Counted from the first letter of the stretch, positions 520 through 52,263 are shown. The stretch: 64,000 bases of DNA from Candidatus Saccharimonadales bacterium (GCA_038231155.1 JBBRLY010000012.1:192645-256644); one strand, 5' to 3'. The notes: a model not told the origin generated them from the letters alone. Translations and numbers: made by a program.

Positions 520-528
520 GGAGATTTT

Positions 529-732: not shown

Positions 733-804
733 GAGTATTTTACATATGTTAAACGAAGTGAACGGTGATGCTGAAGGTTTATGTGACGAAGAACGGAAAA
801 ACTA

Positions 805-1368: not shown

Positions 1369-1429
1369 AAATATAGTTGACGTACAACTTGCAACTGAGC
1401 AGCAAATATATCCTCGCAAAACCGAATAT

Positions 1430-2607: not shown

Positions 2608-2609
2608 AG

Positions 2610-3257: not shown

Positions 3258-3369
3258 ATCAACAATATTGTCTCATAAAAAGTCCTTTTATCCAAAAACT
3301 GTGATATAAATCCCATCTATTGCGTGATCAATATAACTGTGCGTTTTAAAAAAGTAGCGCATCATATAG

Positions 3370-4086: not shown

Positions 4087-4211
4087 CTCATAAAACTAAC
4101 GAGAGTTTTAAATCATAAGATTACCTGACCAATTGTTAAACAATTAAGGCTTTATAGCTAATTGATACATTGGTTTAACGGGTGAGTCTAAATAGCCAGA
4201 TTTAACATGAT

Positions 4212-4883: not shown

Positions 4884-4900
4884 GCTAAATAGCTAAGTTT

Positions 4901-10302: not shown

Positions 10303-10983
10303 ATGGTACAATTCAATCTACTGCCAGATGTAAAAATGCAATACGTCAAAACCAAGCGTATGCAGCAGTTAATAATTCTAGTATCCGGTTTAGTGATAAC
10401 CGGAAGTTTAGTAATCTTAATTTTAATGTTTATGGTTGTTAAAGTTTTCCAAACCAAACACCTAAGTGATGTAAACAAGGATATTAAAAAATATTCCAAT
10501 CAGATAAAAGGCAAGACTGACATTACTAAAATATTAACTATTCAAAATCAGTTGAATAGTTTGACTGGTCTGCATAACCAAAAACCGGTAGCCTCACGTT
10601 TGTATGGTTATATTGGTCAAGTTACTCCAACCCAGATAACGATTTCTGGTTATAATATAGACTTTGATGCTCATACAATCCAAATTACAGGGGGAGCCGA
10701 TACCATAATTAGTATTAATACCTTTGTTGACACACTCAAATTTACGACATATAACAATGGCGATAGTACTAACTCCGCTCCAGCTTTTTCTAGCGTGGTT
10801 TTAAGCAGTTTTAGCAAAACCGACAAGGGTGCCCAGTATACGATTAATATGAATTTTGATTCTAAAATTTTTGATGGTAACTCGACACCAACGTTAGTTG
10901 TTCCTCCTGGTAAAATAACCACCCGTTCAACAACTGAAAAACCACAAGATTTATTTAAACAATCAACAACAGGGACACCATAG
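10303..10983 (+). CDS. pilN: PilN-like pilus assembly protein
   Basis: FNLLP motif near the N-terminus followed by a single TM helix; position after pilM. Confidence 0.65.
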   Translation: MVQFNLLPDVKMQYVKTKRMQQLIILVSGLVITGSLVILILMFMVVKVFQTKHLSDVNKDIKKYSNQIKGKTDITKILTIQNQLNSLTGLHNQKPVASRLYGYIGQVTPTQITISGYNIDFDAHTIQITGGADTIISINTFVDTLKFTTYNNGDSTNSAPAFSSVVLSSFSKTDKGAQYTINMNFDSKIFDGNSTPTLVVPPGKITTRSTTEKPQDLFKQSTTGTP

Positions 10984-10991
10984 GTTTATAT

Positions 10992-11669
10992 ATGAACGTT
11001 AAAGATGCCCTATCATCCAAGCATGTACAAATAGATAAAGCCAATGCCACAATGGTTGCAGCTATCGCTACAGCCAGCTTCTTAGCTATCTTTTCATTAT
11101 TTGCATCAAAAGCTTTATGGAGTCAAAGCGCCTATCAAAACCGAGTTATTGTTAAAAAAGAAAAAGCTCGTGACCAGTTAAAGAAAAATGTCGACACTGC
11201 TACCCAATTAACTACTCGCTATCAAGCCTTTGTTAGCTCTACGCAAAACGTCCTTGGCGGTAATCCTACTGGCCAAGGTGCCAACGACGGTGATAACGCC
11301 AAGATAATACTAGATGCTTTACCTAGTAAGTATGATTTTCCGGCAGTAGCAACCAGCTTAGAAAATCTTCTAACCCAAAATGGACTAAAAACAAATTCAA
11401 TTACTGGTACGGACGATGAAGTGGCTCAAGGAGGTAATAAATCTAGCCCAGATCCTCAAGTAGTCGAGATGCCATTTCAGGTAAGTGTAACTGGTGCCTA
11501 TACTACGATACAGAATCTAACCAACATTTTTGAACATTCAATCCGACCGATTCATATTAAAACAATTCAATTTACCGGTAGCGATAGTATTTTAACAATG
11601 AACGTTGATGCCATTACTTATTACCAGCCGGAGAAAAATCTAGATAATACATTTGAGGTAGTAAAATGA
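10992..11669 (+). CDS. pilO: PilO-like pilus assembly protein
   Basis: Single N-terminal TM, coiled region, position after pilN. Assigned mainly by context. Confidence 0.45.
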   Translation: MNVKDALSSKHVQIDKANATMVAAIATASFLAIFSLFASKALWSQSAYQNRVIVKKEKARDQLKKNVDTATQLTTRYQAFVSSTQNVLGGNPTGQGANDGDNAKIILDALPSKYDFPAVATSLENLLTQNGLKTNSITGTDDEVAQGGNKSSPDPQVVEMPFQVSVTGAYTTIQNLTNIFEHSIRPIHIKTIQFTGSDSILTMNVDAITYYQPEKNLDNTFEVVK

Positions 11670-11917
11670 AACAAAAAGACATAACATTAATAATCGTAAT
11701 AGCCTTTATAAGCGGAGTATTTTCGATTATCGCTTCCAAAACTATAATTACACCTAGCAAAAACCGTCAAACTAAGGTTGAAGTAGTCAAAGCCATAAGT
11801 GCAGACTTTAATGATCCGGACCCTAAATATTTTAATTCTAATTCGATAGATCCGACGCGTCTGATTACCATCGGTAATAATAGCAATCCACTACCTTTTA
11901 ACGACCAAAGTCAGTAG
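11666..11917 (+). CDS. small single-TM protein in the pil operon
   Basis: 83 aa, one TM helix, overlaps the upstream stop by 4 nt. Confidence 0.45.
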   Translation: MKQKDITLIIVIAFISGVFSIIASKTIITPSKNRQTKVEVVKAISADFNDPDPKYFNSNSIDPTRLITIGNNSNPLPFNDQSQ

Positions 11918-11931
11918 GGTAGAAAGCTAAA

Positions 11932-13716
11932 ATGGCTGTGCTATCGGCTAACATTCAAAAACTGGTTGAAGACAACTTACTTAAAGATGGCCTTTTAACT
12001 GAAGAAAAACTAAAAGAACTAAAAGATAAGGCCGAGAATAATAACACGCCACTTTTTAGTTTATTAGTTAACGACGGCATAGTAACTAACGAAACTCTAA
12101 CCCATGCCATAGCTAAAACTACCAGGGTGCCGTACGTTAATTTGAGCAAAGCCACTATTAATCCTGAAGTCTTAGCCCTATTACCGCGCGATCTGGCCGA
12201 ACGCTACATGGCAGTACCGCTCGGCGAAATGCAGCATCACTTAGTTGTAGCAATGCTAGATGCTGATAATGTCCAGGCAGTAGATTTTTTGGCTAATAAA
12301 ATTGGCCGACCACTGAAAGTCTACTCCGCTTCTGAAGAGGGAATTCGCAATATACTGGGGCAATACAAGGGAGAATTTAATTCAAACGTTACTAATGCTC
12401 TAATAGATCAAAAAGATATTGAAGACGTGGTAATCGATGATAGCGAAAAAGAAGACATCGAAACTATTTCTCAAGACTCGCCAATTAGCAAGATAATCAC
12501 CGCGATTATGGAATATGCCGTTGGCCATAGAGCTAGTGATATTCACATTGAACCTCAAAAAGGTAGTCTTAAGATTCGTTGTCGGGTTGACGGGCTGTTA
12601 CGAGAGGTTATGAAATTACCTAAAAGCACCGAACCTCCGATAATCTCTCGAATAAAAATTTTATCCAATTTAAAGATTGATGAACACCGTATTCCGCAAG
12701 ATGGACAGTTCACTATAAAGGTATTGAACCATAACGTTGACTTAAGAGTAGCAATTTCTCCGGTGGTTTGGGGAGAGCAAGTTGTTATTCGTTTATTGGA
12801 TAAATCCGGTACTAGCCTTAAATTAGAAAATTTAGGTTACTATGGCCGCTCACTCAGGACCATTCGGGAAGGTTTAAAACATCCTAACGGAATGATTTTA
12901 ACCAGTGGTCCTACGGGTTCTGGAAAAACTACTTCCATGTATGCTCTTATTCAGGAGATAAAAAACGATACTGTCAATATCGTTACACTCGAAGACCCAG
13001 TTGAGTATAAAATGGACGGCGTTAATCAGATTCAGATTAATGCAGATGTTGGTCTAACTTTTGCCACTGGCTTACGATCGATTTTGCGACAAGACCCCAA
13101 TATAGTGATGGTCGGTGAGATACGTGATAAAGAAACGGCACAACTTGCAGTACAGTCAGCTTTAACTGGACACCTAGTGCTATCTACCTTACACACTAAT
13201 TCGGCAGCTGGAATTCTACCCCGGCTACTTGACATGGGCATTGAGCCATTTTTAATAGCTTCTACCGTACATACTGTTATTGGACAACGCTTAGTGCGCA
13301 GCATTCCCGAAGAAATTAGTGAATCTTATCAAAGTGATATTGCCGAAACAGAGGCCATCAAGCAAACAATTGGAAATTTATTACCGACTAGTGAAAAAGA
13401 GCAAAAATCGGTTGGCGAAGATTTAGGCTTTGAAAACTTGCCACTCAAAAGCCAAAACGCTTATACTTTATATAAGGGCCAGAACAGTCCCGATAATCCT
13501 GGGGGTTACAAAGGGCGAGTAGGATTATATGAGGCATTTAATGTGTCAGAAAAGATTCAAGATCTTATTCTAAAACAAGCAACTAGCGGTGAAATCCAAA
13601 AAGCCGCCCAATCACAAGGTATGATTACAATGCGTCAAGACGGTTATCTTAAAGCCTTATCGGGGATGTCTTCACTAATTGAAATTAACCGTGTGGCAGT
13701 AGCGGAAACCACTTAA
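11932..13716 (+). CDS. pilB: type IV pilus assembly ATPase PilB (GspE family)
   Basis: N-terminal T2SSE_N-like region, Walker A GPTGSGKTT, Asp box, Walker B, His box (LSTLHTNSAAG). Confidence 0.95.
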   Translation: MAVLSANIQKLVEDNLLKDGLLTEEKLKELKDKAENNNTPLFSLLVNDGIVTNETLTHAIAKTTRVPYVNLSKATINPEVLALLPRDLAERYMAVPLGEMQHHLVVAMLDADNVQAVDFLANKIGRPLKVYSASEEGIRNILGQYKGEFNSNVTNALIDQKDIEDVVIDDSEKEDIETISQDSPISKIITAIMEYAVGHRASDIHIEPQKGSLKIRCRVDGLLREVMKLPKSTEPPIISRIKILSNLKIDEHRIPQDGQFTIKVLNHNVDLRVAISPVVWGEQVVIRLLDKSGTSLKLENLGYYGRSLRTIREGLKHPNGMILTSGPTGSGKTTSMYALIQEIKNDTVNIVTLEDPVEYKMDGVNQIQINADVGLTFATGLRSILRQDPNIVMVGEIRDKETAQLAVQSALTGHLVLSTLHTNSAAGILPRLLDMGIEPFLIASTVHTVIGQRLVRSIPEEISESYQSDIAETEAIKQTIGNLLPTSEKEQKSVGEDLGFENLPLKSQNAYTLYKGQNSPDNPGGYKGRVGLYEAFNVSEKIQDLILKQATSGEIQKAAQSQGMITMRQDGYLKALSGMSSLIEINRVAVAETT

Positions 13717-13725
13717 GGGGGAATT

Positions 13726-14796
13726 ATGGCAGGACAAGGTGTACGAATTGAACTTTTGTTAGAAGAAGTCGTCAAAAAGAAAGGTTCTGATCTTCACTTG
13801 CAAGTAGGCTTGCCGCCAATGATTAGAGTTGACGGTGCATTGTTGCCAGTTACGGCAGCCGAACCATTGGATGAAGAAACTCTGGAAACCTTAATTTTCA
13901 GTATATTAGATGAAGATCAAAAACAAATTCTATTAAAAGATAAAGAATTTGATTTTAGTTTTGCATTTGGTGACCTGGGAAGGTTTAGAGTTAATGCCTT
14001 TCATGAACGCGGTAATTTAGCGGCAGCTCTACGCTTAATACCTAATGAAATACGTGGTATTGAGGAATTGGGACTACCAGCTGTAGTCAATAAATTTGCT
14101 GATTACCCTCGAGGCTTAGTACTAGTTACCGGGCCAACTGGCTCCGGAAAGTCAACCACTCTGGCGGGCCTTATTAGCCGAATAAATAATGAGCGAGCAT
14201 CGCATATTATTACTATCGAAGATCCAATAGAATACACTCATAAATCCAAAAAATCGATTATTGTACAACGCGAAGTTCATTACGATACTTATTCATTCAG
14301 TGCGGCTTTGAGGTCCAGTTTGCGTGAGGACCCAGATGTTGTATTGATTGGAGAGATGCGAGATCTTGAAACCATATCTTCAGCTATTACGATCGCTGAA
14401 ACTGGCCATTTAGTTTTGGCGACTCTACATACCAACTCTGCAAGTCAAAGTATTGACCGAATGGTAGACGTTTTCCCACCACACCAACAGCCTCAAATTA
14501 AAGCCCAACTTGCCAATATTTTGATGGCAATTTGTGCGCAGCGACTTATCCCCGCCATTGGAGGTGGTCGAATTGCAGCTGCTGAAATATTAGTTGCTAC
14601 ACCGGCTGTACGCAACATTATTCGAGAAGGTAAAACTCATCAGTTGGAAGCAGTAATTCAAACTGGTTCTGAGCATGGTATGCAGTCGATGGATAAAACT
14701 TTAGTTACCATGGTCCACAGCGGCACCATTAGCTATGATGAAGCCCGTATGGTAGCAGTTGATCTAGAAGAGTTCGAACGATTGATGAGAGGTTAG
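13726..14796 (+). CDS. pilT: twitching motility ATPase PilT
   Basis: 356 aa, GPTGSGKSTT, AIRNIIREGK motif characteristic of PilT. Confidence 0.95.
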   Translation: MAGQGVRIELLLEEVVKKKGSDLHLQVGLPPMIRVDGALLPVTAAEPLDEETLETLIFSILDEDQKQILLKDKEFDFSFAFGDLGRFRVNAFHERGNLAAALRLIPNEIRGIEELGLPAVVNKFADYPRGLVLVTGPTGSGKSTTLAGLISRINNERASHIITIEDPIEYTHKSKKSIIVQREVHYDTYSFSAALRSSLREDPDVVLIGEMRDLETISSAITIAETGHLVLATLHTNSASQSIDRMVDVFPPHQQPQIKAQLANILMAICAQRLIPAIGGGRIAAAEILVATPAVRNIIREGKTHQLEAVIQTGSEHGMQSMDKTLVTMVHSGTISYDEARMVAVDLEEFERLMRG

Positions 14797-21112: not shown

Positions 21113-22027
21113 TTAATAATTAGTTCTATGAAACTTTTGATGCACAGCTTTTAAGTGCGGATCAGTAACATGAGTATAGATTTGAGTGGTTGAAATATTA
21201 CTATGGCCAAGTAAGGCTTGGACTGATCTCAAATCGGCTCCATTCATTAATAAATCTGTTGCGTAGGAATGGCGTAAGGTATGGGGTGAGACGTGTTTAG
21301 TAATTCCAGCAAGTAGGGCATATCGTTTAACCATGCGCTGAACACTGCGGGCGGTAAGCCGATGAAAATTACCACTTAAGTCTACTTGCTTAGAGCCACT
21401 ATAGCGTACAAATAATGGACGAGTGTTATCCTTTCGGCTAGCTAAATATTTTTGCAACCAATCAACGGCCGCCTCACTGATAAATATTGGCCGATCTTTT
21501 TGCCCCTTACCGCGAACCGTAAACTCACGACGTTTTAAATTAATATGGTCACGGTCCAAACCCACCAGTTCCGAAACCCTTAACCCACTGCTAAAGAGCA
21601 GTTCTAAAATAGCCCGATCACGTAGACCTGAGGGTTTATTTATATCAGCTTGCGCAAACAAACGTTCTAGTTCTTCAGGTGTTAAAAAAGTCACTTGTTT
21701 ACGTACGGTACGAGCTAGCTCAATTTTATTGGGCGCCAAAGCCGGTAAATCCAATTTGGAGCAGTATTTTAAAAAACTGCGAAGGGCAATCAAGTGATAA
21801 TTTTGAGTTGATTTCTGAAGTTCATCACTAACATTAGTGCCTAAACGGTTTAACCAAAGCCGCCACTTACGAATTAGCTCCGAGTCAATGTCTTTAACTT
21901 CTATATTACCGGCAAAATCAATTAACCGAGTTAGGTAATGATCATAATTAGCAATAGTTTTTTGGGAGCGGTTTTGCTCTATTTCCAAATATTCTAAAAA
22001 TTCAGTTTTAGCTTTTTCAAGTAACAT
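21113..22027 (-). CDS. tyrosine recombinase, XerC/XerD family
   Basis: C-terminal catalytic motifs HTLRHSYATDLL...LLGHSNISTTQIYTHV, SAM-like N-domain; likely start at ATG 22027 (M16 of the ORF). Confidence 0.88.
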   Translation of the reverse strand: MLLEKAKTEFLEYLEIEQNRSQKTIANYDHYLTRLIDFAGNIEVKDIDSELIRKWRLWLNRLGTNVSDELQKSTQNYHLIALRSFLKYCSKLDLPALAPNKIELARTVRKQVTFLTPEELERLFAQADINKPSGLRDRAILELLFSSGLRVSELVGLDRDHINLKRREFTVRGKGQKDRPIFISEAAVDWLQKYLASRKDNTRPLFVRYSGSKQVDLSGNFHRLTARSVQRMVKRYALLAGITKHVSPHTLRHSYATDLLMNGADLRSVQALLGHSNISTTQIYTHVTDPHLKAVHQKFHRTNY

Positions 22028-22172
22028 AACTATATTGTACGACACTGCAACTAAAGTCCCCAGTGAATACAAACTTAAGCCATAAGTAATTACTTTAGCT
22101 CTGGGTCTAATGTAAGACTAGGGACTGACCCTTGTATCTGTTAAAATAGATGTTAATAATAGAAGGATATAC

Positions 22173-24713: not shown

Positions 24714-24767
24714 CGTTTGCCTAGAATTAGACTCACTTACAGCAATTCTTATAAACTAACGACAAAT

Positions 24768-25052
24768 CTAGTAAAGCTTGTCAGCTTTATATACACAAAG
24801 CTGGTTTTTGACTGCATCTTGTATAAAAGCCTTTTGGCCAGACCTTAAGACGTTCAACGATTTCATTTTTTTAAGTCCATTTGAATGTAAGCTAATATTA
24901 CCTTTGTTCCAGCGACAAACATTGTTGACGTCTACCGAATAACTGGCATATAACAGGTGAAACAGTAATATTCCACTCAATATCGATAATGTGAATACTA
25001 GTATCATTTTCTTAATAAGTTTTTTCTGGTCTTTGCTTAAATTTGATTTCAT
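24768..25052 (-). CDS. hypothetical membrane-anchored protein
   Basis: 94 aa ORF with one TM helix; no recognisable domain. Confidence 0.35.
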   Translation of the reverse strand: MKSNLSKDQKKLIKKMILVFTLSILSGILLFHLLYASYSVDVNNVCRWNKGNISLHSNGLKKMKSLNVLRSGQKAFIQDAVKNQLCVYKADKLY

Positions 25053-25457
25053 ACAACAAATACTACACTATAATATTTTTATAACCATAAGCTTACTACT
25101 GCTTATAGCTTTTATTTCTAGTGTTTTAGAACCAACCGCAAAGAGAGTTTAAGGCAATTACTAGTCAGCTAAGCTGTTTTAATAAGTACGCTGATCGTTA
25201 CTACTTTTAGTTGCCATTATTACTTTTGGCTTTATAAGACCAATATATAAACTAAAGTTTAAACCTAAGCTTTCAACTAGCTGCAGCCATTTTATAAATT
25301 TCTGGGAATCTATTCTATTTGTCATTTTTGTTTATTATCCTGCCGATAAATTTAAGCACAAAGGCTATAGTCGGTCAATAATTTATTATTCTTGGATAGG
25401 CAAGTACGTTAATTTATAGTAGATCTATAATAAAGTAGTTTTCACTATCGCAAACTA

Positions 25458-25823
25458 TTATTCCGAAGACGAATTATTTCTATTTCTGATTTGTTGAAGC
25501 CTTTCTATAGCTACTTCACTCAATTTTATATCAATTTGTCTCTTAACATCCTTAACTTCGGTTTTTTCTGGATCTAAATTACTATCGAGGAATAAACTAC
25601 GACCCCTATAAATCTCAATGCCAAGCTGAACTCCACATTCAGTCAAAATTTTACTGCCGATTTTACTGGACATTATGGTTGTGGCATAATCTGGCTCATA
25701 CCCATAACTTGGCAACATCTCACCCAAATCTGTCGAAACTAAAACAAAACCACGCCTAAGGATTTCAGCAGTATCGTGAAAAAAAGCTTCTCGTTCTGGT
25801 TTAACTTCAGCTAAACCCGACAT
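25458..25823 (-). CDS. hypothetical protein (island)
   Basis: 121 aa ORF; no recognisable motif. Confidence 0.4.
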   Translation of the reverse strand: MSGLAEVKPEREAFFHDTAEILRRGFVLVSTDLGEMLPSYGYEPDYATTIMSSKIGSKILTECGVQLGIEIYRGRSLFLDSNLDPEKTEVKDVKRQIDIKLSEVAIERLQQIRNRNNSSSE

Positions 25824-25873
25824 AAATTAACAATACATTAACATAAGAAGTTAGTCTACCTAAAGGATATAAA

Positions 25874-26182
25874 TTATTGCTTTTGCATTATCTCAAGTAA
25901 ACCGCGGGCTGCGTGTCGTGAGTCTTGTTCAGCAACAGGGTCTTCAGCAAGTAGTTCTAAGCTCATTTGAATATCTGCAACAACTGCTTCATCATTTAGT
26001 AAGTTTACTTCCAAGACAGGATATCCATCGGCCGAGTGCGGCATAGAATCATGTTTGTTGAGCACAGTTTCTAATTTCATTTCAACTTCTGGGTTCAACC
26101 CAGTTGAGGCCAAAGCCCGATAAGTTGTGTCTACTTGTAGTCTGCCATCAAGCTTTAGATATTTAGGATTTTCTTGAGCCAT
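25874..26182 (-). CDS. small acidic protein, paralog family member 1
   Basis: 102 aa; C-terminus ADIQMSLELLAEDPVAEQDSRHAARGLLE aligns with the C-termini of the 27215..27451 and 28893..29189 products. Confidence 0.5.
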   Translation of the reverse strand: MAQENPKYLKLDGRLQVDTTYRALASTGLNPEVEMKLETVLNKHDSMPHSADGYPVLEVNLLNDEAVVADIQMSLELLAEDPVAEQDSRHAARGLLEIMQKQ

Positions 26183-26266
26183 AATAACTTAATTATATAA
26201 TTTAAATTAAAAAAAGTCAAGTTTATTGACTTAGTTTGATTTAATTAACAATGGCCAAATAAGTGA

Positions 26267-26929
26267 TTACAGGTTGTTTATATGTTCCGCGAAACTTTTA
26301 CCAGACTCTAAACTGTACGGATCTAGCTGGACTATGGTAAATCTAAACCTAAAATCAGATTGACTAGTTAAAGTTGCATAGCTACCTAACTTTTCTGAGA
26401 TAGATACTTCAAGACTCGACTCATCCACGTCATTTAGGAAACTGACAGTTTGCTCCCAGCTGTGTTCATGATTAACCACGCCTAGTGATAGCTTATGATT
26501 TCCATTTGATTTGTCTGATTCTCTTAGTAACGCACCTAACAGGGCAGGACCAATACGATGTGGTTTATCGTCAATTATTCCGATATTTACATCTCGGCTT
26601 TGTTTAACAACATGATCGGCTTTGCCTTGTTCGCTACCGGTTAATACAATTTGTTCAGGATGCCGGAAAAAATCTCCCAGACCAAGTTCAGCAATTGAGC
26701 GGGCTGTGGCATTTCTACGAATTGCAATATCTGGGCGTCGAGAAACAATACCAGCTACTTCTACGCCTTGGTGTTGGATTCCTTGTAAAAACTCAACGTA
26801 ACCAGCCAATCCCTTTAGCCTAGTTTTTAGTACATTTCTTCGCCAATGCAAAGGATTCTTGTTATTGAGATCTTCAACAGCAGTACCATCAAAGTCACTC
26901 CAAAACTGGGATTTTGTAGCCTCACTCAT
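26267..26929 (-). CDS. HAD-like hydrolase (tentative)
   Basis: DFDGT (DxDxT-like motif I) near the N-terminus and IIDDKP late motif. Confidence 0.45.
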   Translation of the reverse strand: MSEATKSQFWSDFDGTAVEDLNNKNPLHWRRNVLKTRLKGLAGYVEFLQGIQHQGVEVAGIVSRRPDIAIRRNATARSIAELGLGDFFRHPEQIVLTGSEQGKADHVVKQSRDVNIGIIDDKPHRIGPALLGALLRESDKSNGNHKLSLGVVNHEHSWEQTVSFLNDVDESSLEVSISEKLGSYATLTSQSDFRFRFTIVQLDPYSLESGKSFAEHINNL

Positions 26930-27161
26930 TTAGAGCAAACAATACACGTTATAAAAACTAAGATCAAGCTCAAATGTAATGATTATGTATAAAATTATTT
27001 TCTAGCTATACGGCAAGTGCGCCAGGAGCAGTCCTGGTATATATTGTCTGGGCTACCTGTCGGGTTTCACCTAGAAGCAGCATTTGCTCAACAGCTTGTT
27101 CAGGACTATCTGCTTGAAATAAAAAATCCTGTTCCATGGCTACATCATAGCAAATGATTAC

Positions 27162-27200
27162 GCTTATGCTTGAGATACTCTAGCAAGGTAGGTATGTAAC
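27162..27200 (-). repeat. tRNA-Asp-3'-end-derived repeat, degenerate class B (B0)
   Basis: gcttatgcttgagatactctagcaaggtaggtatgtaac; shares the left arm and the terminal GTAAC; 15 nt from the stop of 27215..27451. Confidence 0.55.
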
Positions 27201-27214
27201 TAGCTTTGTCTAAG

Positions 27215-27451
27215 TTAGTCTAGTAATCCACGCGTTGCCACAACATTATCACACTGAATAGCGGGATCAAGTTCGACTAGCTCTAAGTTCATTAGTATAT
27301 CTGCCTTTATAGCTTCCGTTTCACCACCCTGTATATACATAGCAATATCTTTCTGATCTCCAGTTTCCGAAAGTTGAGAGTGCATATCAATAAAAGTAGT
27401 TAGTCGTTTTTCAGCATCAGGTTCGTATCGACTAGGGTTAAGCTCTTTCAT
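27215..27451 (-). CDS. small acidic protein, paralog family member 2
   Basis: 78 aa from ATG 27451; C-terminus ADILMNLELVELDPAIQCDNVVATRGLLD homologous to 25874..26182. The longer 27215..27748 ORF overlaps the upstream gene. Confidence 0.5.
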   Translation of the reverse strand: MKELNPSRYEPDAEKRLTTFIDMHSQLSETGDQKDIAMYIQGGETEAIKADILMNLELVELDPAIQCDNVVATRGLLD

Positions 27452-27494
27452 AAAGTCAATAGTTATGGACCTTAACAGAGCAGCTGTGGAACTA

Positions 27495-28160
27495 TTACTT
27501 CGATGGGCCGGCGGTAGTAGAGTCAGTAGGTAGACTAGAGTGAGCTTCGGGCTGTAACTCAGCAATCGGAGGTGTTGGTTGAACAGTGGGTATCTGATTT
27601 TGAGTTTGAAGGTTTTCAATTTGGGGCTGTTGAGGTGCCTGAGCACTTTCGCTAGAAGGTAGTATTTGTATAGCCTGCTTGTCACTAGGATTAAGGTTGT
27701 GGCCCTGAACGTCAACCGAACCGTGCACGGTATATGTGTAGTTAACATGTTCGAAGGTTTGGGCCATTGAAACTACTGATTGCAATACTCCGCCCAAGTT
27801 AGGCATTTGACCAAATGGCGTACCGCCAGCTACGCCCCCATTTAGATATAGCTGCAAGTTAATAGTTTTAGTTTCTCCAGGACTAATTGTAAATTGTTCT
27901 CGGCTCTCGGCTTGGGCTACGGTTTGGGCCATAGTACGATTTTCTTGCACCCCAACTCCTGAGCCTCTACCCATTGCCAAACCTTGTTCTCGTGCTACTG
28001 CTTTAATTTCTGCTTTGACGCTATTAATTGTTTGAGTACTTTCAGAAGTTATATTGACCGCAACTGGGATAGCTTGGTTCGATAGAACTGAGCTTGGCGC
28101 CTGAACATGAACCTGAACACCCCCATTGATACTACTCTTCAACTTGCTGAATAAACCCAT
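27495..28160 (-). CDS. Spo0M-like (arrestin-fold sporulation-control family) protein
   Basis: N-terminus MGLFSKLKSSINGGVQVHV and beta-rich repeats resemble the Spo0M family; Q/P-rich tail. Confidence 0.55.
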   Translation of the reverse strand: MGLFSKLKSSINGGVQVHVQAPSSVLSNQAIPVAVNITSESTQTINSVKAEIKAVAREQGLAMGRGSGVGVQENRTMAQTVAQAESREQFTISPGETKTINLQLYLNGGVAGGTPFGQMPNLGGVLQSVVSMAQTFEHVNYTYTVHGSVDVQGHNLNPSDKQAIQILPSSESAQAPQQPQIENLQTQNQIPTVQPTPPIAELQPEAHSSLPTDSTTAGPSK

Positions 28161-28254
28161 GCTCTAACCCTTATTTATATACCGATTATACCCGAATACA
28201 CATGGAACTTATACAGACAAACAAGAACAATATAAGAAACAATTTTCGCTAAGT

Positions 28255-28292
28255 GCTTATGCTTGGCGAGGCATAGAGTCGGATTTCCGAAC
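28255..28292 (-). repeat. tRNA-Asp-3'-end-derived repeat, class A (A1)
   Basis: gcttatgcttggcgaggcatagagtcggatttccgaac. Confidence 0.8.
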
Positions 28293-28332
28293 CGCTTAAG
28301 TTATACTAAAGATGCTATAAATCCAAAATTTC

Positions 28333-28827
28333 ATGAGTAATAAATTTCACAATATATCAAATAAAATCTCGGAACTTTCAGGTTCGACAATGGCTTTTCT
28401 TCTGGCCGTTATTGGTATCATGGTGTGGCTAATTAGCGGTCCGTACTTTCATTTCTCAAATACTTGGCTGATAGCTATAGCAACTATCACCGATGTGGTT
28501 ATATTCCTGATGGTATTTTCCATTCAAAATACTCAAAATCGAGACAGTAGAGCCGTTCAATTAAAGCTTAATGAGCTGATTATAGCTGATAAGAAAGCTA
28601 GGGATACATTTATTGGCCTCGAGGAACTAACCGACGATGAACTATCTGACCTTGACGAAGAGTTTAAGCAGTTGTTAGGCAGGCTCGAAGTTCATCCTGC
28701 GATGCACAAGTTACACAAAACCATCAAGCAAGAAAAGTCCAAAAGACCTGGGTTATACGATCGCGCCGAACATTTTGTTGACAACTTATTAAACCCAACA
28801 ACCAGTAATCACGACAAGAATAGTTAA
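28333..28827 (+). CDS. low-affinity iron permease family protein
   Basis: FSNTWLIAIATITDVVIFLMVFSIQNTQNRDSRAVQLKLNELI matches the conserved core of the bacterial low-affinity iron permease (Fet4-like) family. Confidence 0.7.
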   Translation: MSNKFHNISNKISELSGSTMAFLLAVIGIMVWLISGPYFHFSNTWLIAIATITDVVIFLMVFSIQNTQNRDSRAVQLKLNELIIADKKARDTFIGLEELTDDELSDLDEEFKQLLGRLEVHPAMHKLHKTIKQEKSKRPGLYDRAEHFVDNLLNPTTSNHDKNS

Positions 28828-28835
28828 TTCAAAAT

Positions 28836-28874
28836 GCTTATGCTTGGCGGACCATAACAGAAGAGGTCTGGAAC
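28836..28874 (-). repeat. tRNA-Asp-3'-end-derived repeat, class B (B1)
   Basis: gcttatgcttggcggaccataacagaagaggtctggaac. Confidence 0.75.
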
Positions 28875-28892
28875 TTTTATAGAGGCCTAAGC

Positions 28893-29189
28893 TTAACTTG
28901 GCGAATCACTTCTAGTTTCTATAAGTGAGTCTGCTAGTTCTCTCGCCACATCTTTTGTGTCGGCATCCGCTTCAGAGCCAGCCAGCAGCCATAGTTTATC
29001 AACCAATAAGGTTAGGCAAAAATCATCCTCTAAGATTATTCGCACGCCCTCTGGTATATTATCCATGTCTTCAGAATCTGGCCGAAACTCACCATCTTCT
29101 AAAAGAGAACGTTGAGCAAGACAAGCCTTAAAATATTGACAGACTTCACCTGTTGTAGGGCATCTTAAAACATCAGACGGACTGTCCAT
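28893..29189 (-). CDS. small acidic protein, probable distant paralog family member 3
   Basis: 98 aa, very acidic; LVDKLWLLAGSEADADTKDVARELADSLIE follows the L.LLA...D...AR.L pattern of the other two. Confidence 0.45.
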   Translation of the reverse strand: MDSPSDVLRCPTTGEVCQYFKACLAQRSLLEDGEFRPDSEDMDNIPEGVRIILEDDFCLTLLVDKLWLLAGSEADADTKDVARELADSLIETRSDSPS

Positions 29190-29227
29190 AAGTCTTATAT
29201 AACAATAACAAGACTAATTAGTCAACT

Positions 29228-29257
29228 TTGGCGGGGCATAGAGTCGGATTTCCGAAC
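29228..29257 (-). repeat. tRNA-Asp-3'-end-derived repeat, class A (A2, left arm disrupted)
   Basis: tttggcggggcatagagtcggatttccgaac; abuts the stop of 29260..29499. Confidence 0.75.
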
Positions 29258-29259
29258 GG

Positions 29260-29499
29260 TTAAGTACTAAGTTTTACGCCTGTTGCCTCAGCAACTTTCA
29301 AAATCCATTGTTCCAGTCTGTCGACTTTGTGACCTAAAGATAACATTTCTTGCATATAGGTTTCAGTTTGCTTAGCATAAGCATCTACAGACTTATGTAG
29401 GTTACTAATTTGCCGATGGACTTTTCTAAAACCATCATCCACATTATCAAAGCGCTTATTCATATGTTTGAATAATTTAGTAAACTCGTCCTCGCTCAT
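29260..29499 (-). CDS. hypothetical coiled-coil protein
   Basis: 79 aa helical ORF; TATACT sits 6 nt upstream of the ATG. Confidence 0.45.
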   Translation of the reverse strand: MSEDEFTKLFKHMNKRFDNVDDGFRKVHRQISNLHKSVDAYAKQTETYMQEMLSLGHKVDRLEQWILKVAEATGVKLST

Positions 29500-29554
29500 G
29501 GCTAAAGTATAACATTATGTATCAGCAGTTATTGCAAGTTTAATAATATAAAAA

Positions 29555-29593
29555 GCTTATGCTTGGCGGACCTTATCGGAGTGGATGTGGAAC
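29555..29593 (-). repeat. tRNA-Asp-3'-end-derived repeat, class B (B2)
   Basis: gcttatgcttggcggaccttatcggagtggatgtggaac. Confidence 0.8.
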
Positions 29594-29595
29594 TA

Positions 29596-30024
29596 TTACT
29601 CAGGAAGGATTTCAAATCTACCATCTTCATAAGATGGTTCACAAATTTCGTAGAAGACAAGTCCAGTTGTTTCGTCTGCTGACCACTGCATGGTCTGGCC
29701 GACAGATACATCGACTTCTTTACCTTTGTCTTCTTCTGACTCAAATGTATACTTTTGCGAGCGGCCGTCTTTTGAGACTACAGTAAGAGCGGCTTTACCA
29801 TCTAGAAACCCCTCTATGGTTTTGTCGCCTTTTAGGACCCGCTGAAGTGGTGTCTTGAAGCCGCCAGCTACTCGAACAATAGCCAGGTCGCGAGTGTTAT
29901 CATCCTCAAAGGTATAAACATCACACTCAACTCCATCTTTGACTTGTTGGGTCTCAACATACTTAACAGAATTTGGCTGTTCACCTATTGAAAAGCTGGA
30001 TAGTTTCTCAGGATTGTTGAGCAT
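29596..30024 (-). CDS. hypothetical protein, possibly cupin-like beta-barrel
   Basis: 142 aa, beta-rich; the fold assignment is tentative. Confidence 0.4.
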   Translation of the reverse strand: MLNNPEKLSSFSIGEQPNSVKYVETQQVKDGVECDVYTFEDDNTRDLAIVRVAGGFKTPLQRVLKGDKTIEGFLDGKAALTVVSKDGRSQKYTFESEEDKGKEVDVSVGQTMQWSADETTGLVFYEICEPSYEDGRFEILPE

Positions 30025-30070
30025 GACTTTATCATAACAAAAAGAGACATTTCTGCCTCGTTTATATAGT

Positions 30071-30108
30071 GCTTATACTTGGCGGGGTATAGAGTCGGAT
30101 TTCCGAAC
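30071..30108 (-). repeat. tRNA-Asp-3'-end-derived repeat, class A (A3)
   Basis: gcttatacttggcggggtatagagtcggatttccgaac; its last base is shared with the stop codon of 30108..30290. Confidence 0.8.
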
Positions 30109-30290
30109 TATTTACGTTGGCGACTTTTAAATAGTCCCACCACTCCGACTATAAATAGAACAAGACCCACTAAGTATCCTGTCACAACCAAAGCCATAAT
30201 AAAATTATTGTTACGACTTTGATAAAAATGTGTACCTATGATCAGTACTACTCCGACAAGTAAGATAGCTTGGTTTGAATTTTTATTCAT
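30108..30290 (-). CDS. tiny two-TM membrane protein
   Basis: 60 aa, two hydrophobic helices, basic C-terminus. Confidence 0.4.
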   Translation of the reverse strand: MNKNSNQAILLVGVVLIIGTHFYQSRNNNFIMALVVTGYLVGLVLFIVGVVGLFKSRQRK

Positions 30291-30326
30291 GAATAAAAAT
30301 ATGATAGCAAATTTGAAGTATAACCA

Positions 30327-30359
30327 ATATGGCGGATCTTAACTGAGCAGGTGTGGAAG
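30327..30359 (-). repeat. tRNA-Asp-3'-end-derived repeat, class B (B3, left arm degenerate)
   Basis: atatggcggatcttaactgagcaggtgtggaag. Confidence 0.65.
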
Positions 30360-30363
30360 TATT

Positions 30364-31599
30364 TTATATATCCCTTACACTCCCAAATGGCACACGTTTA
30401 ATAATTACATCTTCCATATTAGCCATTGTTGCAGGTATAACAGTGAATTCTCCGTACTTATCGTTTATTTTGTCTGCTGCATAAGCAAGTGACCTGGAAT
30501 CTAGTCTAGTACCATCAAATAAACCTACTTGTATAGGTGTAGCAGGTACTAGGTCATACACTGCAATATTTATATGAGTTACCCGTGCTGGTATAGCTAC
30601 CAACCTAAACAAGCGCATCATGTGTAAGTATATTTCTTGAGTTGAATAGAGCATTCCTTTAGTCCTCTGACCTTTACCCCACCAGGTATGATTCTCAAAA
30701 CCTAATCCTAAAAAGGCACCTTGAGCTTGGTAATCGTGCATACGTAATCGTCTTCCCGTCTTTTCGCACAGCTTCATGATAAGCCGTGATATTTCTTCAC
30801 GGTTATCTGTTTTGTTGCCGACAGCATAGTCGTTTCCAAAGCTCTTAGTTGCAAACTTTACTGAATCAACTTCATAGCCTCTTAGACGTAAGTACCAATA
30901 ATAACCTACAATACTTTTAAAGACGGCTTTCTTTAGTTTAAACATGGGGGCTTCTAAGAATTCTAGTGGAGTAAATATGTTCTGCAGATTCAGACGAGCC
31001 TTATATCGGTAGTTAATACCAGGTAGGTCTATAAGGTCCAACTGTCCATAGAGATTGTAGATATCTTTAGCTGTAATTACATCCAGACCATCTGGTTTGT
31101 CCATTCCAGCTGCTATTTTAGCTAAGAATCTATTAGGACCTATACCTATATTTACAGTGACATATTCACCCAACGACTCTTTAATATCCTTTTTTATCTG
31201 ATAACCCACCTCAACCAAGCTTTGTCCTCTTTGTACAGCTTGGGAGCCTTTAAAATCGACCACAAACTCGTCAATCGACTTAGGTGTTACTTCGTTGGTA
31301 TATCTCTCTAAAACGGCTCTAAATCGTCTATGGGCATCAAAGTATTTATCTGGGTCTGGAGTAAGTATTATAATGTCTGGACAAATTTCTCTAGCCTCAC
31401 GAACTCGCATAAGTTTTATACCCAAACGTCTTGCTTCGTATGAACTAGCAATAATAAAACCACCAGGTGAGTCGTAAGCTGCTACACCCACTGGCTTGTT
31501 GCGTATCAAACGATTAGCCTGTTGTTCAATAATAGCGTAACAACTATTTAAGTCGATATGCATTATTAATGGCTCACTATTGTTTAGTAACAGTTCCAT
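30364..31599 (-). CDS. Y-family DNA polymerase, UmuC/ImpB-like
   Basis: MHIDLNSCYAIIEQ...KPVGVAAYDSPGGFIIASSYEARRLGIK matches the UmuC-type N-terminus; 411 aa; SD AGGAG upstream. Confidence 0.85.
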   Translation of the reverse strand: MELLLNNSEPLIMHIDLNSCYAIIEQQANRLIRNKPVGVAAYDSPGGFIIASSYEARRLGIKLMRVREAREICPDIIILTPDPDKYFDAHRRFRAVLERYTNEVTPKSIDEFVVDFKGSQAVQRGQSLVEVGYQIKKDIKESLGEYVTVNIGIGPNRFLAKIAAGMDKPDGLDVITAKDIYNLYGQLDLIDLPGINYRYKARLNLQNIFTPLEFLEAPMFKLKKAVFKSIVGYYWYLRLRGYEVDSVKFATKSFGNDYAVGNKTDNREEISRLIMKLCEKTGRRLRMHDYQAQGAFLGLGFENHTWWGKGQRTKGMLYSTQEIYLHMMRLFRLVAIPARVTHINIAVYDLVPATPIQVGLFDGTRLDSRSLAYAADKINDKYGEFTVIPATMANMEDVIIKRVPFGSVRDI

Positions 31600-31628
31600 T
31601 TTTATACTCCTAGAATTAAACTATTAAT

Positions 31629-32294
31629 ATGTGCGGACGCTATACCCTAGACAAACAAGCCGATGATATTGCTAAGCGTTACAACGCGGCCACAAAGGTT
31701 AAAGACTCACGGCCAAACTATAACGTTGCTCCATCACAAGTCATGCCAGTTATTACTGAAGACGAAACTGGCAAACGTCACATTGAATTGATGCGTTGGG
31801 GGATTCCTCGGATGCTGGGTAAAGATTTAGTTAAAGAACTAATTAACACTAGGGCGGAAAAAGCATTTGGAGGCTTCTGGAAACGTACAGTGTTAAATCA
31901 ACGGTGTCTAATACCTGCCACTGGTTTTTATGAATGGAAGACTATTACGACTGGTAAAGTACCATTCTTTATTCATCCTAAACATATAGACTTATATTCC
32001 TTTGCTGGTATTTGGGACACCTGGAAAGGTAAAGATGGTCAGGTAATTAAAACTTACTCAATAATGACCACTGAACCAAACAAAGAAATGAGTTCAATAC
32101 ACAATCGTGAACCAGTTATCTTACACCCAGAAGATGAAGAAGACTGGATTAAGCCATCAAACGATACTGAAGAAAGTCTAGAGAACCTTCTGTTTCCGCT
32201 CGAAGACAATAGTCTTGATATATATGAGGTAAGCAGGGACGTAAACAACCCCAGGAATAACGATAAATCGTTGCTAGTACCTGTAGCTGATTAG
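31629..32294 (+). CDS. SOS response-associated peptidase (SRAP/YedK family)
   Basis: Begins MCGRY (catalytic Cys2), FYEW motif, about 220 aa. Confidence 0.9.
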   Translation: MCGRYTLDKQADDIAKRYNAATKVKDSRPNYNVAPSQVMPVITEDETGKRHIELMRWGIPRMLGKDLVKELINTRAEKAFGGFWKRTVLNQRCLIPATGFYEWKTITTGKVPFFIHPKHIDLYSFAGIWDTWKGKDGQVIKTYSIMTTEPNKEMSSIHNREPVILHPEDEEDWIKPSNDTEESLENLLFPLEDNSLDIYEVSRDVNNPRNNDKSLLVPVAD

Positions 32295-32420
32295 TGAGTA
32301 TGCCACCTTGTTAATAAGCCTGTATGTAGAAAGGCAATCGCCAGTACATGCATGACTAATTCAGATTATAGCACTTGCTAAAATCATCAACCTCTAAAGA
32401 TAGAGATATATGAGTAAATC

Positions 32421-32458
32421 GCTTATGCTTGGCGGGGTATAGAGTCGGATTTCCGAAC
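32421..32458 (-). repeat. tRNA-Asp-3'-end-derived repeat, class A (A4)
   Basis: gcttatgcttggcggggtatagagtcggatttccgaac. Confidence 0.8.
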
Positions 32459-32473
32459 TTTAAAATAGTAACT

Positions 32474-32779
32474 TTAAAATTGAGTACAGAAAGTGAACCC
32501 AAAAAGGATTAGAGGTGCTAGAAGTAAACAAATTATTAATACGAGTGAAGATTTGATAATATATTTTTTTGATTTTTGTTTTATAGAGATAATTAAGCTG
32601 ATTATTGGTAGTATTATGCTTAATGCAAGTAGTATAAATAGTAACGGGTAAAAAAAAGTAGTTTGACCACAACTTCCAGGAACACGTACTCTGTTGCCAA
32701 TTGGCCAAGTTAATAATTCAGAAATAATCGTAAAAACTAATAGTTTGGGTATCAAGCGTTGATTATTAGTAATATCCAT
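32474..32779 (-). CDS. small multi-TM membrane protein
   Basis: 101 aa, three hydrophobic segments; TATACT sits 6 nt upstream of the ATG. Confidence 0.4.
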   Translation of the reverse strand: MDITNNQRLIPKLLVFTIISELLTWPIGNRVRVPGSCGQTTFFYPLLFILLALSIILPIISLIISIKQKSKKYIIKSSLVLIICLLLAPLILFGFTFCTQF

Positions 32780-32804
32780 TGAGAAAGTATATCAAATAGT
32801 AACC

Positions 32805-32843
32805 ACTTATGCTTGGCGGGCCTTAACGGAGCAGGTGTGGAAT
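32805..32843 (-). repeat. tRNA-Asp-3'-end-derived repeat, class B (B4)
   Basis: acttatgcttggcgggccttaacggagcaggtgtggaat. Confidence 0.8.
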
Positions 32844-32847
32844 TATT

Positions 32848-33123
32848 TCACTTTGAAGAACGAGGATTTGATTTTGACTTAGGTATGCAGGCAAGTATTA
32901 ATGCAGGTAATCCAAGAACGATTGGTGAAATAGAACCAACAATACCCATATCCAGACCACAATATTCACCTGTATAACATGAATTTCCTGAGTGAGTAGT
33001 GTAGACAGAAACTATTACCGTTATGATTGCCAAGCCTACAGCATATTTCCAAAATATTCCTCTCAAAACCATTGAGACAATCAAAGCAATAACTGGAATA
33101 AGCAGATATATGTTATAACTCAT
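32848..33123 (-). CDS. small multi-TM membrane protein
   Basis: 91 aa, three hydrophobic segments, basic tail. Confidence 0.45.
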   Translation of the reverse strand: MSYNIYLLIPVIALIVSMVLRGIFWKYAVGLAIITVIVSVYTTHSGNSCYTGEYCGLDMGIVGSISPIVLGLPALILACIPKSKSNPRSSK

Positions 33124-33171
33124 TGGAACAATAATATATGGATTTCAATAATTAATTAAAACGCTAATGCT

Positions 33172-33248
33172 TGGCGGGCTCGACCGGATTTGAACCGGCG
33201 ATCTCCTCCGTGACAGGGAGGCGTGTTAGACCACTACACTACGAGCCC
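33172..33248 (-). tRNA. tRNA-Asp (anticodon GTC)
   Basis: Cloverleaf: acceptor GGGCTCG/CGAGCCC, anticodon stem CCTCC/GGAGG, loop CTGTCAC, T-arm GCCGG-TTCAAAT-CCGGT, discriminator G, CCA. Confidence 0.9.
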
Positions 33249-49998: not shown

Positions 49999-50074
49999 TG
50001 GTCGGGGTGATCCGACTTGAACGGACGACCTCAGCGTCCCGAACGCTGCGCGCTACCAACTGCGCCACACCCCG
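49999..50074 (-). tRNA. tRNA-Pro (anticodon CGG)
   Basis: Acceptor CGGGGTG/CACCCCG, anticodon stem CAGCG/CGCTG, loop TTCGGGA, T-loop TTCAAGT, CCA. Confidence 0.88.
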
Positions 50075-50759: not shown

Positions 50760-50835
50760 TGGTCGGGGTGACAGGACTTGAACCTGCGACCTCACGGCCC
50801 CCAGCCGTACGCGCTACCAACTGCGCCACACCCCG
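50760..50835 (-). tRNA. tRNA-Pro (anticodon GGG)
   Basis: Same acceptor and D arm as the CGG isoacceptor; anticodon stem TACGG/CCGTG, loop CTGGGGG, CCA. Confidence 0.88.
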
Positions 50836-51922: not shown

Positions 51923-52260
51923 GGCCAGATTATTGGCTGGTCGCGGTGCCCTAAAGGCATCGAGGAAAGTCCGGGCAGCTTAGGGATAAGACAGTTGCTA
52001 ACGGCAACCAGGGGTAACCCTAGGGAAAGTGCCACAGAAACTATACGGCCCTTCGGGGCAAAGGTGAAAAGAGTGGGGTAAGAGCCCACAGTTCCTGACG
52101 GTGACGTCGGGAAAAGGTAAACCCTGTCTGCTGCAAGGAGATATGCTCAATTATGGTATCCCGCCAGAGCCTATCATAAAAACCGCTTGATCCTGATGGC
52201 AACATCAGGACTAGATAGATGGCTAGCTACGACAAAACCCGGCTTATAGATAATCTGGCT
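51923..52260 (+). ncRNA. rnpB: RNase P RNA (bacterial)
   Basis: Universal P4 strand GAGGAAAGTCCGGGC, AGTGCCACAGAAA, GGTAAACCC, ACAAAACCCGGCTTA, and P1 pairing GCCAGATTAT/ATAATCTGGC. Confidence 0.9.
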
Positions 52261-52263
52261 TTA

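Follow-up and report, generated by a model that had tools for sequence, protein, structure and literature searches.

The subject of this analysis is an array of small gene cassettes that extends from the 3' end of a tRNA-Asp(GTC) gene in a Candidatus Saccharimonadales bacterium, a member of the Saccharibacteria (TM7). The window analysed is a stretch of 64,000 nucleotides (GCA_038231155.1 JBBRLY010000012.1:192645-256644; G+C 39.6%), in which the tRNA gene occupies positions 33172..33248 on the minus strand. This assignment, first made in a reading of the DNA by itself (the sequence-only reading), was borne out by ARAGORN and by Rfam (tRNA, 69.8 bits), and the gene is complete at the array's proximal end, its 3' end reading ...GAGCCCGCCA. 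The 3' end of tRNA-Asp(GTC) is the anchor of the array, that is, its attB/attI-like end. Next to it the tRNA-proximal cassette begins (33163..33171, minus strand) with bases that read A-GCATTAGC in the orientation of the tRNA, a variant of the GCATAAGC box that is described below. Altogether the variable region spans about 24714 to 33171 and is set in a gene order shared with syntenic loci, namely an Xer-family recombinase, NDK, tRNA-Arg(CCT), two conserved genes and the variable region, followed by tRNA-Asp, tRNA-Thr and tRNA-Gly.

The cassettes are separated by sites of about 40 bp, each made up of a sequence-conserved arm of ~22-30 nt and a 7-bp core, CCGCCAA, which repeats the tRNA's final bases (CC-G-CCA) with one base added. 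Two classes of site are present in the window, equal in length and with both ends in common; in the direction of the tRNA, class A reads TAGTTCGGAAATCCGACTCTATGyCCCGCCAA and class B reads AAAATAGTTCCAsACCTsyTCCrCTAaGGyCCGCCAA. The arm loosely mimics the tRNA between its T-loop and acceptor end, most sites being diverged mimics rather than true fragments, and the similarity to the tRNA that had been proposed for the repeats shrinks to a common stretch of 7-8 nt, CCCGCCA(A). Nor do the repeats contain some 9 nt of the tRNA 3' flank, as had been supposed; GCATAAGC is instead a motif at the 5' end of many cassettes. Of 97 non-redundant junctions, 35 have it behind the core (background 0.5%), and another 14 have it in inverted form within 4 nt of the core. 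The box is quasi-palindromic (GCwTAwGC), and the A arm, core and box together make up an imperfect inverted repeat, TCTATGC-C-CCGCCAA-GCATAAG, with a 7-8-bp centre and 5/7 bases matching.

Outside the window the division into only two classes did not hold. Rarer classes were also met: some sites are true tRNA-Asp 3' fragments, some form a class D (GTTCCGACTTGGACTATAACGCCCCGCCAA), and there are others again; the distance between GTTC and CCGCCAA is ~29-30 nt in all of them. Next to tRNA-Arg(GCG) the class A arm was found joined to ACACCAA, which matches the end of that tRNA. Because the core must match the partner tRNA and yet is not itself conserved, it would appear to behave as the overlap region of a tyrosine recombinase.

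Searches of the window placed the sites well above chance. With at most one mismatch, GCTTATGCTTGGCGG was found at 28255, 28836, 29555, 30071, 32421 and 32805 and at the tRNA junction (33163), and with up to three mismatches there were eight matches against 1.24 expected, a number that none of 100 shuffles attained. The class A core sequence ATAGAGTCGGATTTCCGAAC occurs in four exact copies (28273, 29238, 30089 and 32439; none expected), in keeping with the four near-identical class A copies noted earlier, and the class B core sequences are confined within the window to the array. Profile hidden Markov models built from the copies detected no site outside the array in the 64 kb. Starting from the tRNA, and all on the minus strand, the sites are B4 (32805..32848, 44 bits), which reads AATAATTCCACACCTGCTCCGTTAAGGC-CCGCCAA-GCATAAGT in tRNA orientation; A4 (32421..32458, 46 bits), which reads GTTCGGAAATCCGACTCTATAC-CCCGCCAA-GCATAAGC; B3 (30329..30364, 37 bits); A3 (30071..30108, 49 bits); B2 (29555..29598, 34 bits); A2 (29228..29257, 46 bits); B1 (28836..28879, 41 bits); and A1 (28255..28292, 44 bits), the core of which is CTCGCCAA. 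B3 and A2 have the core with no GCATAAGC box behind it, so the flank said to be common to all copies is present in most of them but GCTTATGC is missing from these two. The copies listed in the sequence-only reading were real, but a good B-type arm had been overlooked at 27463..27497 (minus strand, 30 bits); this site, B0R, has a damaged core (GGTCCA-TAAC). The most distal copy on that list, then named B0 (27162..27203, minus strand), has the flank and the canonical length but a degenerate, B-like arm, read from sequence as GTTACATACCTACCTTGCTAGAGTATCTC then AAGCATAAGC, and it scores under the profile threshold. The two most distal sites in the window are also the weakest.

The cassettes between these sites are mostly small and lie mainly on the minus strand with the tRNA. 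Between the tRNA and B4 lies a predicted membrane protein of 91 aa (32848..33123, minus), and between B4 and A4 one of 101 aa (32474..32779, minus). The interval from A4 to B3 holds a Y-family DNA polymerase (30364..31599, minus; Pfam IMS/IMS_C) and an SRAP/YedK-like protein (31629..32294, plus; Pfam SRAP). The genes for this DinB-like polymerase and this abasic-site protein of the SRAP/YedK type are divergent, with 29 bp between them, and the cassette (30364-32294) is a DNA-damage-tolerance module carried as accessory cargo. There follow a 60-aa membrane peptide between B3 and A3 (30108..30290, minus), a 142-aa protein with no Pfam match between A3 and B2 (29596..30024, minus), a 79-aa coiled-coil-like protein between B2 and A2 (29260..29499, minus) and a 98-aa protein between A2 and B1 (28893..29189, minus). 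From B1 to A1 the cassette encodes a Fet4-like low-affinity iron permease (28333..28827, plus; Pfam PF04120, E=3.9e-40), a gene that opposes the direction of the tRNA, and the sites adjoining it hold their polarity. Farther out are a 221-aa protein between A1 and B0R (27495..28160, minus) and a 78-aa protein between B0R and the degenerate site (27215..27451, minus), the latter also called as a gene in L017 (L numbers denote loci recovered in related genomes and metagenomes). Two intervals had been described as holding two genes each; one of them is split by the overlooked B arm, which sets the 78-aa open reading frame (ORF) apart. A promoter of its own for every cassette, also part of the earlier description, was unsupported in the window, where a consensus scan returned 17 promoter-like sites against 19 expected in shuffles.

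Beyond the last site lie five more ORFs (94, 121, 102, 220 and 43 aa; 24768..27137, minus strand), which are co-oriented with the tRNA. No recognisable sites accompany them and no homologues were found in syntenic loci; they are probably old cassettes of a decayed distal end. The 16 array ORFs of the window have no homologue among ~100 cassettes of other arrays, and the cassette proteins of the window do not recur in syntenic loci of Saccharibacteria.

Arrays of this kind were found repeatedly in related genomes. A scan of 185,579 species genomes with the class A core gave 14 loci, 12 of which come from metagenome-assembled genomes (MAGs) of Saccharibacteria/Saccharimonadales, and a scan of metagenomes gave 79 further loci, ~45 of them genuine. 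In these ~45 loci the sites keep a single orientation and lie downstream of tRNA-Asp(GTC) wherever a tRNA adjoins them, the exceptions being a few class A sites that adjoin tRNA-Arg(GCG) (L009/L081 and L057). In the latter, single class A cassettes stand downstream of tRNA-Arg(GCG), with the core ACACCAA and then the GCATAAGC box; sites of this kind have a second target tRNA in tRNA-Arg(GCG). A repetitive extragenic palindromic (REP)-like repeat without link to tRNA-Asp, which the sequence-only reading had named as the finding that would overturn it, is not what was seen, as the copies are tied to tRNA-Asp and rarely to tRNA-Arg(GCG). Scans of IMG/VR with the class A core, a degenerate class B pattern and the tRNA-Asp 3' end yielded nothing real; three class B matches in that database were set aside, having no profile support, 45-50% GC and no tRNA.

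Exact-protein look-ups with two flanking genes and three cassettes of the window either gave no record or led back to this very strain, in two samples. Its other contigs have an unchanged cassette order and end at class A repeats or at the tRNA cluster: L017 ends in A3, L100 begins at A3, L101 is the B3-to-A4 cassette alone, and L015/L016 begin just ahead of tRNA-Thr. With short-read assemblies broken at class A repeats and the tRNA cluster in this way, such arrays will be systematically fragmented in, or missing from, MAGs. In L030/L091, tRNA-Gly and tRNA-Thr are followed by sites at 428-5965 in an inverted array with no tRNA-Asp between, which suggests that the tRNA cluster has been rearranged in that lineage. 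L032, compared with L029, has head-to-head segments (A- at 696 and 1397, A+ at 1636 and 2356) that form a 97%-identical inverted duplicate, produced either by inversion between sites or as an assembly artefact.

Comparison between arrays shows that the sites are conserved as sequence. B sites never served as a search pattern; from one array to another they are 71% identical, and those A sites that do not match the search pattern are 76% identical; overall the sites are 71-79% identical across species. The 36 nt on either side of the sites are only 26-29% identical, which is the random level. The case against passive decay of old integration scars, argued at the outset from the window, is strengthened by the contrast between B sites at 71% and their flanks at 27-29% identity.

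The cassettes themselves were analysed with ~110 cassette ORFs drawn from ~28 independent arrays. The 111 intervals from site to site have a median length of ~590 bp (175-3251 bp) and usually hold one ORF; eight further intervals are 'empty' (0-5 nt). ORFs are co-oriented with the tRNA in 93 of 110 cases (p=7e-14), and the sites retain their polarity beside the 17 on the opposite strand. Among co-oriented frames, 73 of 78 stop at most 60 nt upstream of a site, the commonest stop position (12 times) being the TAG/TAA of the site itself. Neither an integrase nor a transposase came up when 98 cassette ORFs of other arrays, and 10 of the window, were scanned with Pfam. In the 98, the recognised cargo consisted of PIN (4), YafQ (4), MazE, NUDIX and Fic/Doc, together with SET, Mrr, LRR, an SDR and a PEP-utilising enzyme, and ~70% had no Pfam match, as estimated from the family counts. 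The PIN/MazE and YafQ cargo represents toxin-antitoxin pairs; four arrays have homologous toxin-antitoxin cassettes, which differ in rank from one array to another. TTGACA/TATAAT promoters are clear by eye in three alignments of cassettes from arrays other than that of the window, and terminator hairpins directly behind the site can be seen in some cassette alignments and at the L086/L095 junction. One lake-metagenome lineage also has a unit of ~160 bp behind the tRNA core and the mapped A-site cores (in tRNA orientation, L086 89-250, 819-978 and 2030-2191; L095 4172-4333 and 5201-5362). This unit comprises a terminator hairpin, ~100 nt more and a true tRNA-Asp 3' fragment ending CCCGCCAAG, and it behaves like a mini-cassette or an extended 5' module of a cassette.

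Close relatives were then compared at the boundaries of the array. The flanks of L007 are 97% identical to those of L001/L004, which are two stretches of a single contig; the identity spans the whole tRNA, ends at ...GCCA and resumes at the last distal site. Between these points L007 has six cassette intervals and L001/L004 have ten, mapped on the two stretches, and the two sets are unrelated apart from one cassette. This common cassette, with a promoter, a 234-aa gene and an A site, is 88% identical in L004 and L007 and lies in them on opposite sides of a segment that is 97% identical in both genomes; the sites of its distal copy are visibly decayed. Another cassette (98% identical) stands behind the tRNA in L095 and behind an A site in L086, the identity beginning inside CCCGCCAAG. 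L053 and L075 have a distal A site and its flank in common and differ in their cassettes. All three pairs of close relatives differ at the tRNA-proximal end, and across 45 sites in 10 arrays the site score drops with distance from the tRNA (Spearman rho=-0.36, p=0.016). The content and order of the locus are thus far from fixed in relatives, the other finding that the sequence-only reading had named as fatal to it: content is wholly replaced between 97%-identical flanks, with breakpoints at sites. Together these comparisons agree with cassettes that enter at the tRNA end, by a crossover at or in the core, and with sites that slowly decay on the distal side. A crossover at the GTTC edge, which would make the site a part of the downstream cassette, was considered and rejected, since the L086/L095 and L001/L007 junctions put the switch at the CCGCCA core and since A and B arms could not restore a functional tRNA.

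With regard to the enzyme, the array encodes no integrase or transposase, as had been stated before and as both Pfam and phmmer bore out; phmmer searches with the Xer protein returned Xer orthologues only. The nearest tyrosine recombinase is indeed the Xer-family gene at 21113..22072 (minus strand; Pfam), and a gene of this family is the sole one near any array. It lies 2.6 kb past the distal end of the array, with four genes and a tRNA between, and the six loci long enough to show it all have it within a few kb of the array. Against integron-integrase models it scored 146 bits (TIGR02249, cutoff 265) and 95 bits (PRK15417, cutoff 435); it is under the cutoff for XerD and XerC models and over the cutoff for a XerA-type model. 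The Xer protein is 78-80% identical across three aligned species, in which neighbouring genes are 26-71% identical. Alignment of the regions around six Xer orthologues disclosed no conserved dif-like motif and no 11-6-11 architecture, and GC skew gave no terminus signal. The Xer-family enzyme is therefore only a candidate for the trans-acting recombinase.

The strict alternation of A and B that was described for the window needs to be qualified. The nine profile-scored sites of the window do give unlike neighbours in 8 of 8 pairs (permutation p=0.007), and L004 nearly alternates. The distal end, however, reads B-like, B, A1, and in 27 other arrays unlike neighbours make up 28 of 56 pairs against 26.5 expected (p=0.33), AAAA runs and BB pairs being common. 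Since other arrays show no excess of unlike pairs, alternation is not taken to be part of the mechanism; A and B are two families of one kind of site and not two halves of one mechanism. The alternation in the window is most probably a historical accident: it may be a chance pattern noticed afterwards, or may reflect weak selection against deletion between identical neighbours. A scheme that would make A the left and B the right end of a single unit was likewise discarded, AA and BB neighbours being common and both kinds of interval holding genes.

Taken together, we consider it probable that site-specific recombination has built up the locus as an integron-like array behind the tRNA-Asp(GTC) 3' end, with a recombinase supplied in trans. 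Each cassette would be a small unit of one ORF or one toxin-antitoxin pair, sometimes with its own promoter, that ends in a ~40-bp site. Recombination would presumably be of the tyrosine-recombinase type, and the enzyme would act in trans because the cassettes carry none. The junctions show strand exchange to lie at or within the 7-bp core, so that new cassettes would enter directly behind an intact tRNA; older ones would be pushed distally, where sites do decay. An integron-like platform and serial integration of minimal elements, two of the readings offered at the outset, both describe what the data support. More tentatively, and as a possibility to which we give somewhat less than even weight, Saccharibacteria, and perhaps other Patescibacteria, may own an undescribed integron-like platform for gene capture that uses the CCA end of a tRNA, several sequence-defined families of sites (A, B, D and others) with just a 7-bp overlap in common with the tRNA, and a recombinase encoded outside the element (the conserved housekeeping Xer-family enzyme or another host enzyme).

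Several observations weigh against a recombination array of this kind. No recombinase for the array sites was identified among the genes examined, and neither an excised circle nor an empty site was seen, other contigs of the same strain carrying the same order. The GCATAAGC box stands behind the core at just about a third of the junctions. Homology between copies of a cassette starts 10-190 nt past the upstream core, so that the 5' boundary is unsharp, and the site of a toxin-antitoxin cassette can be A in one array and B in the homologous cassette of another. Abutting junctions, in which a B core is followed by an A arm within 0-5 nt, occur in three lineages, and in L039 an A arm begins 1 nt past the tRNA; simple excision does not predict such abutting sites. 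Finally, as the loci were found via the class A core, the relative frequencies of the classes are biased.

The array could alternatively have grown by ordinary accretion, whereby integrase-bearing elements entered tRNA-Asp serially, their integration modules were later deleted and attR scars were left behind, with A and B as the attP arms of two element families. Such growth has a precedent in the tRNA-seeded islands of Prochlorococcus, which contain partial-tRNA repeats and are most variable beside the tRNA (10.1101/2020.12.28.424599), and the same pattern is the general rule for tDNA islands (PMC4383910). The true tRNA-Asp 3' fragments of some arrays are like classic scars, and the distal decay of sites also agrees with accretion. 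We nevertheless regard it as unlikely, since neither an integrase nor a transposase is present in the ~110 ORFs of ~28 independent arrays, whole units of promoter, gene and site turn up again in other positions, the arms of A and B are kept across species next to flanks at random identity, and no viral contig in IMG/VR carries the sites or the tRNA end; random deletion, moreover, does not predict cassettes that are uniformly compact and have stops abutting the site. A different account would make the sites relics that now serve as short homology anchors for transformation and RecA-dependent swaps, as at the 'minimal mobile element' loci of Neisseria. Saccharibacteria have been reported to be naturally transformable, the sites are 35-50 bp long and near-identical within a class, the replacement of whole arrays between conserved flanks is what flank-mediated exchange would give, and alternating classes would guard single cassettes from deletion between identical neighbours. 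Homologous recombination, however, gives no account of how each gene acquired a 3' site, and it leaves unexplained the fixed polarity, the link to one tRNA with the switch to an ACACCAA core at tRNA-Arg(GCG), and breakpoints that fall at the 7-bp core rather than anywhere in 40 bp of homology. We therefore hold it to be decidedly improbable.

A reading at the RNA level, in which the sites are tRNA-like 3' processing or stabilising signals (t-elements) on cassette mRNAs co-transcribed with the tRNA, draws on the facts that most ORFs are co-oriented with the tRNA and end at a site, and that the sites end ...GCCA like a mature tRNA. Its structural basis fails, however: folds of both DNA strands of four sites were no better than those of shuffles (z -0.1 to -1.2), 13 of 74 copies have an uncompensated break in the sole hairpin (TCGGA..TCCGA), which has no covariation support, a Rfam scan at E<=5 found no match at the sites, and the sites are without the acceptor 5' strand. 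Polarity is moreover independent of the coding strand, being kept beside the 17 opposite-strand ORFs, the iron permease included, and the co-variation of the core with the neighbouring tRNA gene is a property of the DNA. This reading, which had been among those first proposed, is very hard to sustain. A generic intergenic repeat, of the REP type or that of miniature inverted-repeat transposable elements, that is dense here by chance would account for copies that are short, numerous and intergenic, but not for their absence from the rest of the 64 kb, nor for a single orientation downstream of tRNA-Asp or tRNA-Arg(GCG) wherever the contig has a tRNA. As the sites also have no terminal inverted repeats and no stable hairpins, we attach next to no weight to it.

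The probable recombination array was compared with known systems. It resembles a chromosomal integron most in its working and tRNA-seeded additive islands most in its probable pattern of growth, and it fails the defining tests of both, having no IntI, no attC structure and no element-borne integrase. With chromosomal integrons and clusters of attC sites lacking integron-integrases (CALINs) it shares many small, mostly single-ORF and co-oriented cassettes, each ending in a recombination site, ORF stops in or beside the site, cargo that is mostly unknowns and toxin-antitoxin pairs, probable growth at one fixed end, and content that is replaced between close relatives. Unlike integrons, it has no IntI (146 bits for the nearest recombinase against a cutoff of 265); its sites are conserved in sequence and not in structure, with no attC-like hairpin; its insertion point is the 3' end of a tRNA gene and not an attI beside intI; and some of its cassettes carry their own promoters and terminators. 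The composite arrays of staphylococcal cassette chromosome (SCC) elements at rlmH in staphylococci are comparable in having tandem cassettes at the 3' end of a conserved gene with gene-end direct repeats between them, and some of their units have no recombinase and are mobilised in trans. SCC units, however, are much larger and not single-ORF, use serine (Ccr) recombinases and target a protein-coding gene. Composite SCC arrays at rlmH in staphylococci are covered in PMC11470126.

Tycheposon islands (10.1101/2020.12.28.424599) and classic tDNA islands (Islander, PMC4383910) likewise have an intact proximal tRNA and repeats of the tRNA 3' end, are most variable beside the tRNA and, as is probable here, keep older material distally. 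They differ in being kilobases long, with their own integrases and replication modules, compared with units of ~0.3-1 kb here, and in that the repeats described here combine conserved non-tRNA arms with only 7-8 nt of tRNA identity. Integrative mobile elements exploiting Xer (IMEX) and the dif modules of Acinetobacter (PMC13141974, PMC6449649) are small modules of one to a few genes, often toxin-antitoxin, and, like the present cassettes, bring no recombinase with them; the enzyme they use belongs to the host. The dif modules are the sole known system in which two kinds of unit must strictly alternate (PMC13141974, PMC6449649), an obligation that in Acinetobacter follows from inversely oriented asymmetric sites (PMC13141974). 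Here, in contrast, all sites are direct repeats and alternation is not general; the target is a tRNA end and not dif, and neither an 11-6-11 architecture nor a host dif was found. In the literature searched the architecture is undescribed in Saccharibacteria or Patescibacteria, with a coverage that was partial and is no proof of novelty.

As to the origin of the cassettes, relatives of the 142-aa cassette protein were traced. A total of 110 proteins, 44-66% identical to it, are found in Saccharibacteria in ordinary chromosomal neighbourhoods without sites, and because its relatives sit in such site-free neighbourhoods, recruitment of cassettes from the general accessory gene pool is suggested. 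Relatives were also noted in a variable stretch between prolyl-tRNA synthetase and peptide deformylase (L102 5500-14400, L104 2400-8800, L106 5400-14200), which is dense in small co-oriented accessory genes (HIT, NUDIX, HAD, cupin, NYN, PIF1, KwaB) and in which no repeats, sites or tRNA were found in the three loci. Another relative is carried on the contig of L107, where a 557-aa large serine recombinase (Resolvase domain) adjoins a TraG/TrwB-like gene (10935-14417), and which may represent a conjugative or integrative element. Elsewhere in the 64-kb window, no repeats of their own 3' ends were found for the other tRNAs. Two tRNA-Pro genes (49999-50074 and 50760-50835) lie 685 bp apart and have their last 12 nt in common, and the RNase P RNA (51925-52262) lies 1 kb beyond this pair, with no cassette-type repeats there.

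Patescibacteria have very small genomes, are generally thought to be poor in classical mobile elements, and exchange accessory genes by routes that are poorly understood. The array turns over within ~3% divergence of the flanking sequence, and its cargo comprises toxin-antitoxin, DNA-damage-tolerance and surface or membrane genes; it would thus offer a concrete and experimentally tractable route of gene flux in this group. The A and B repeats account for the assembly breaks at the locus, their consensus sequences can be used for mining cassette pools from metagenomes, and the sites might serve as landing pads for genetic tools in Saccharibacteria. The array would be a second, independent solution of the integron type, in which single-gene cassettes move, the insertion point is fixed and the recombinase is shared, here built on a tRNA end and sequence-defined sites. 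If the gene-capture platform suggested above exists, it would be a dedicated locus that lets reduced, host-dependent genomes sample a large pool of accessory genes.

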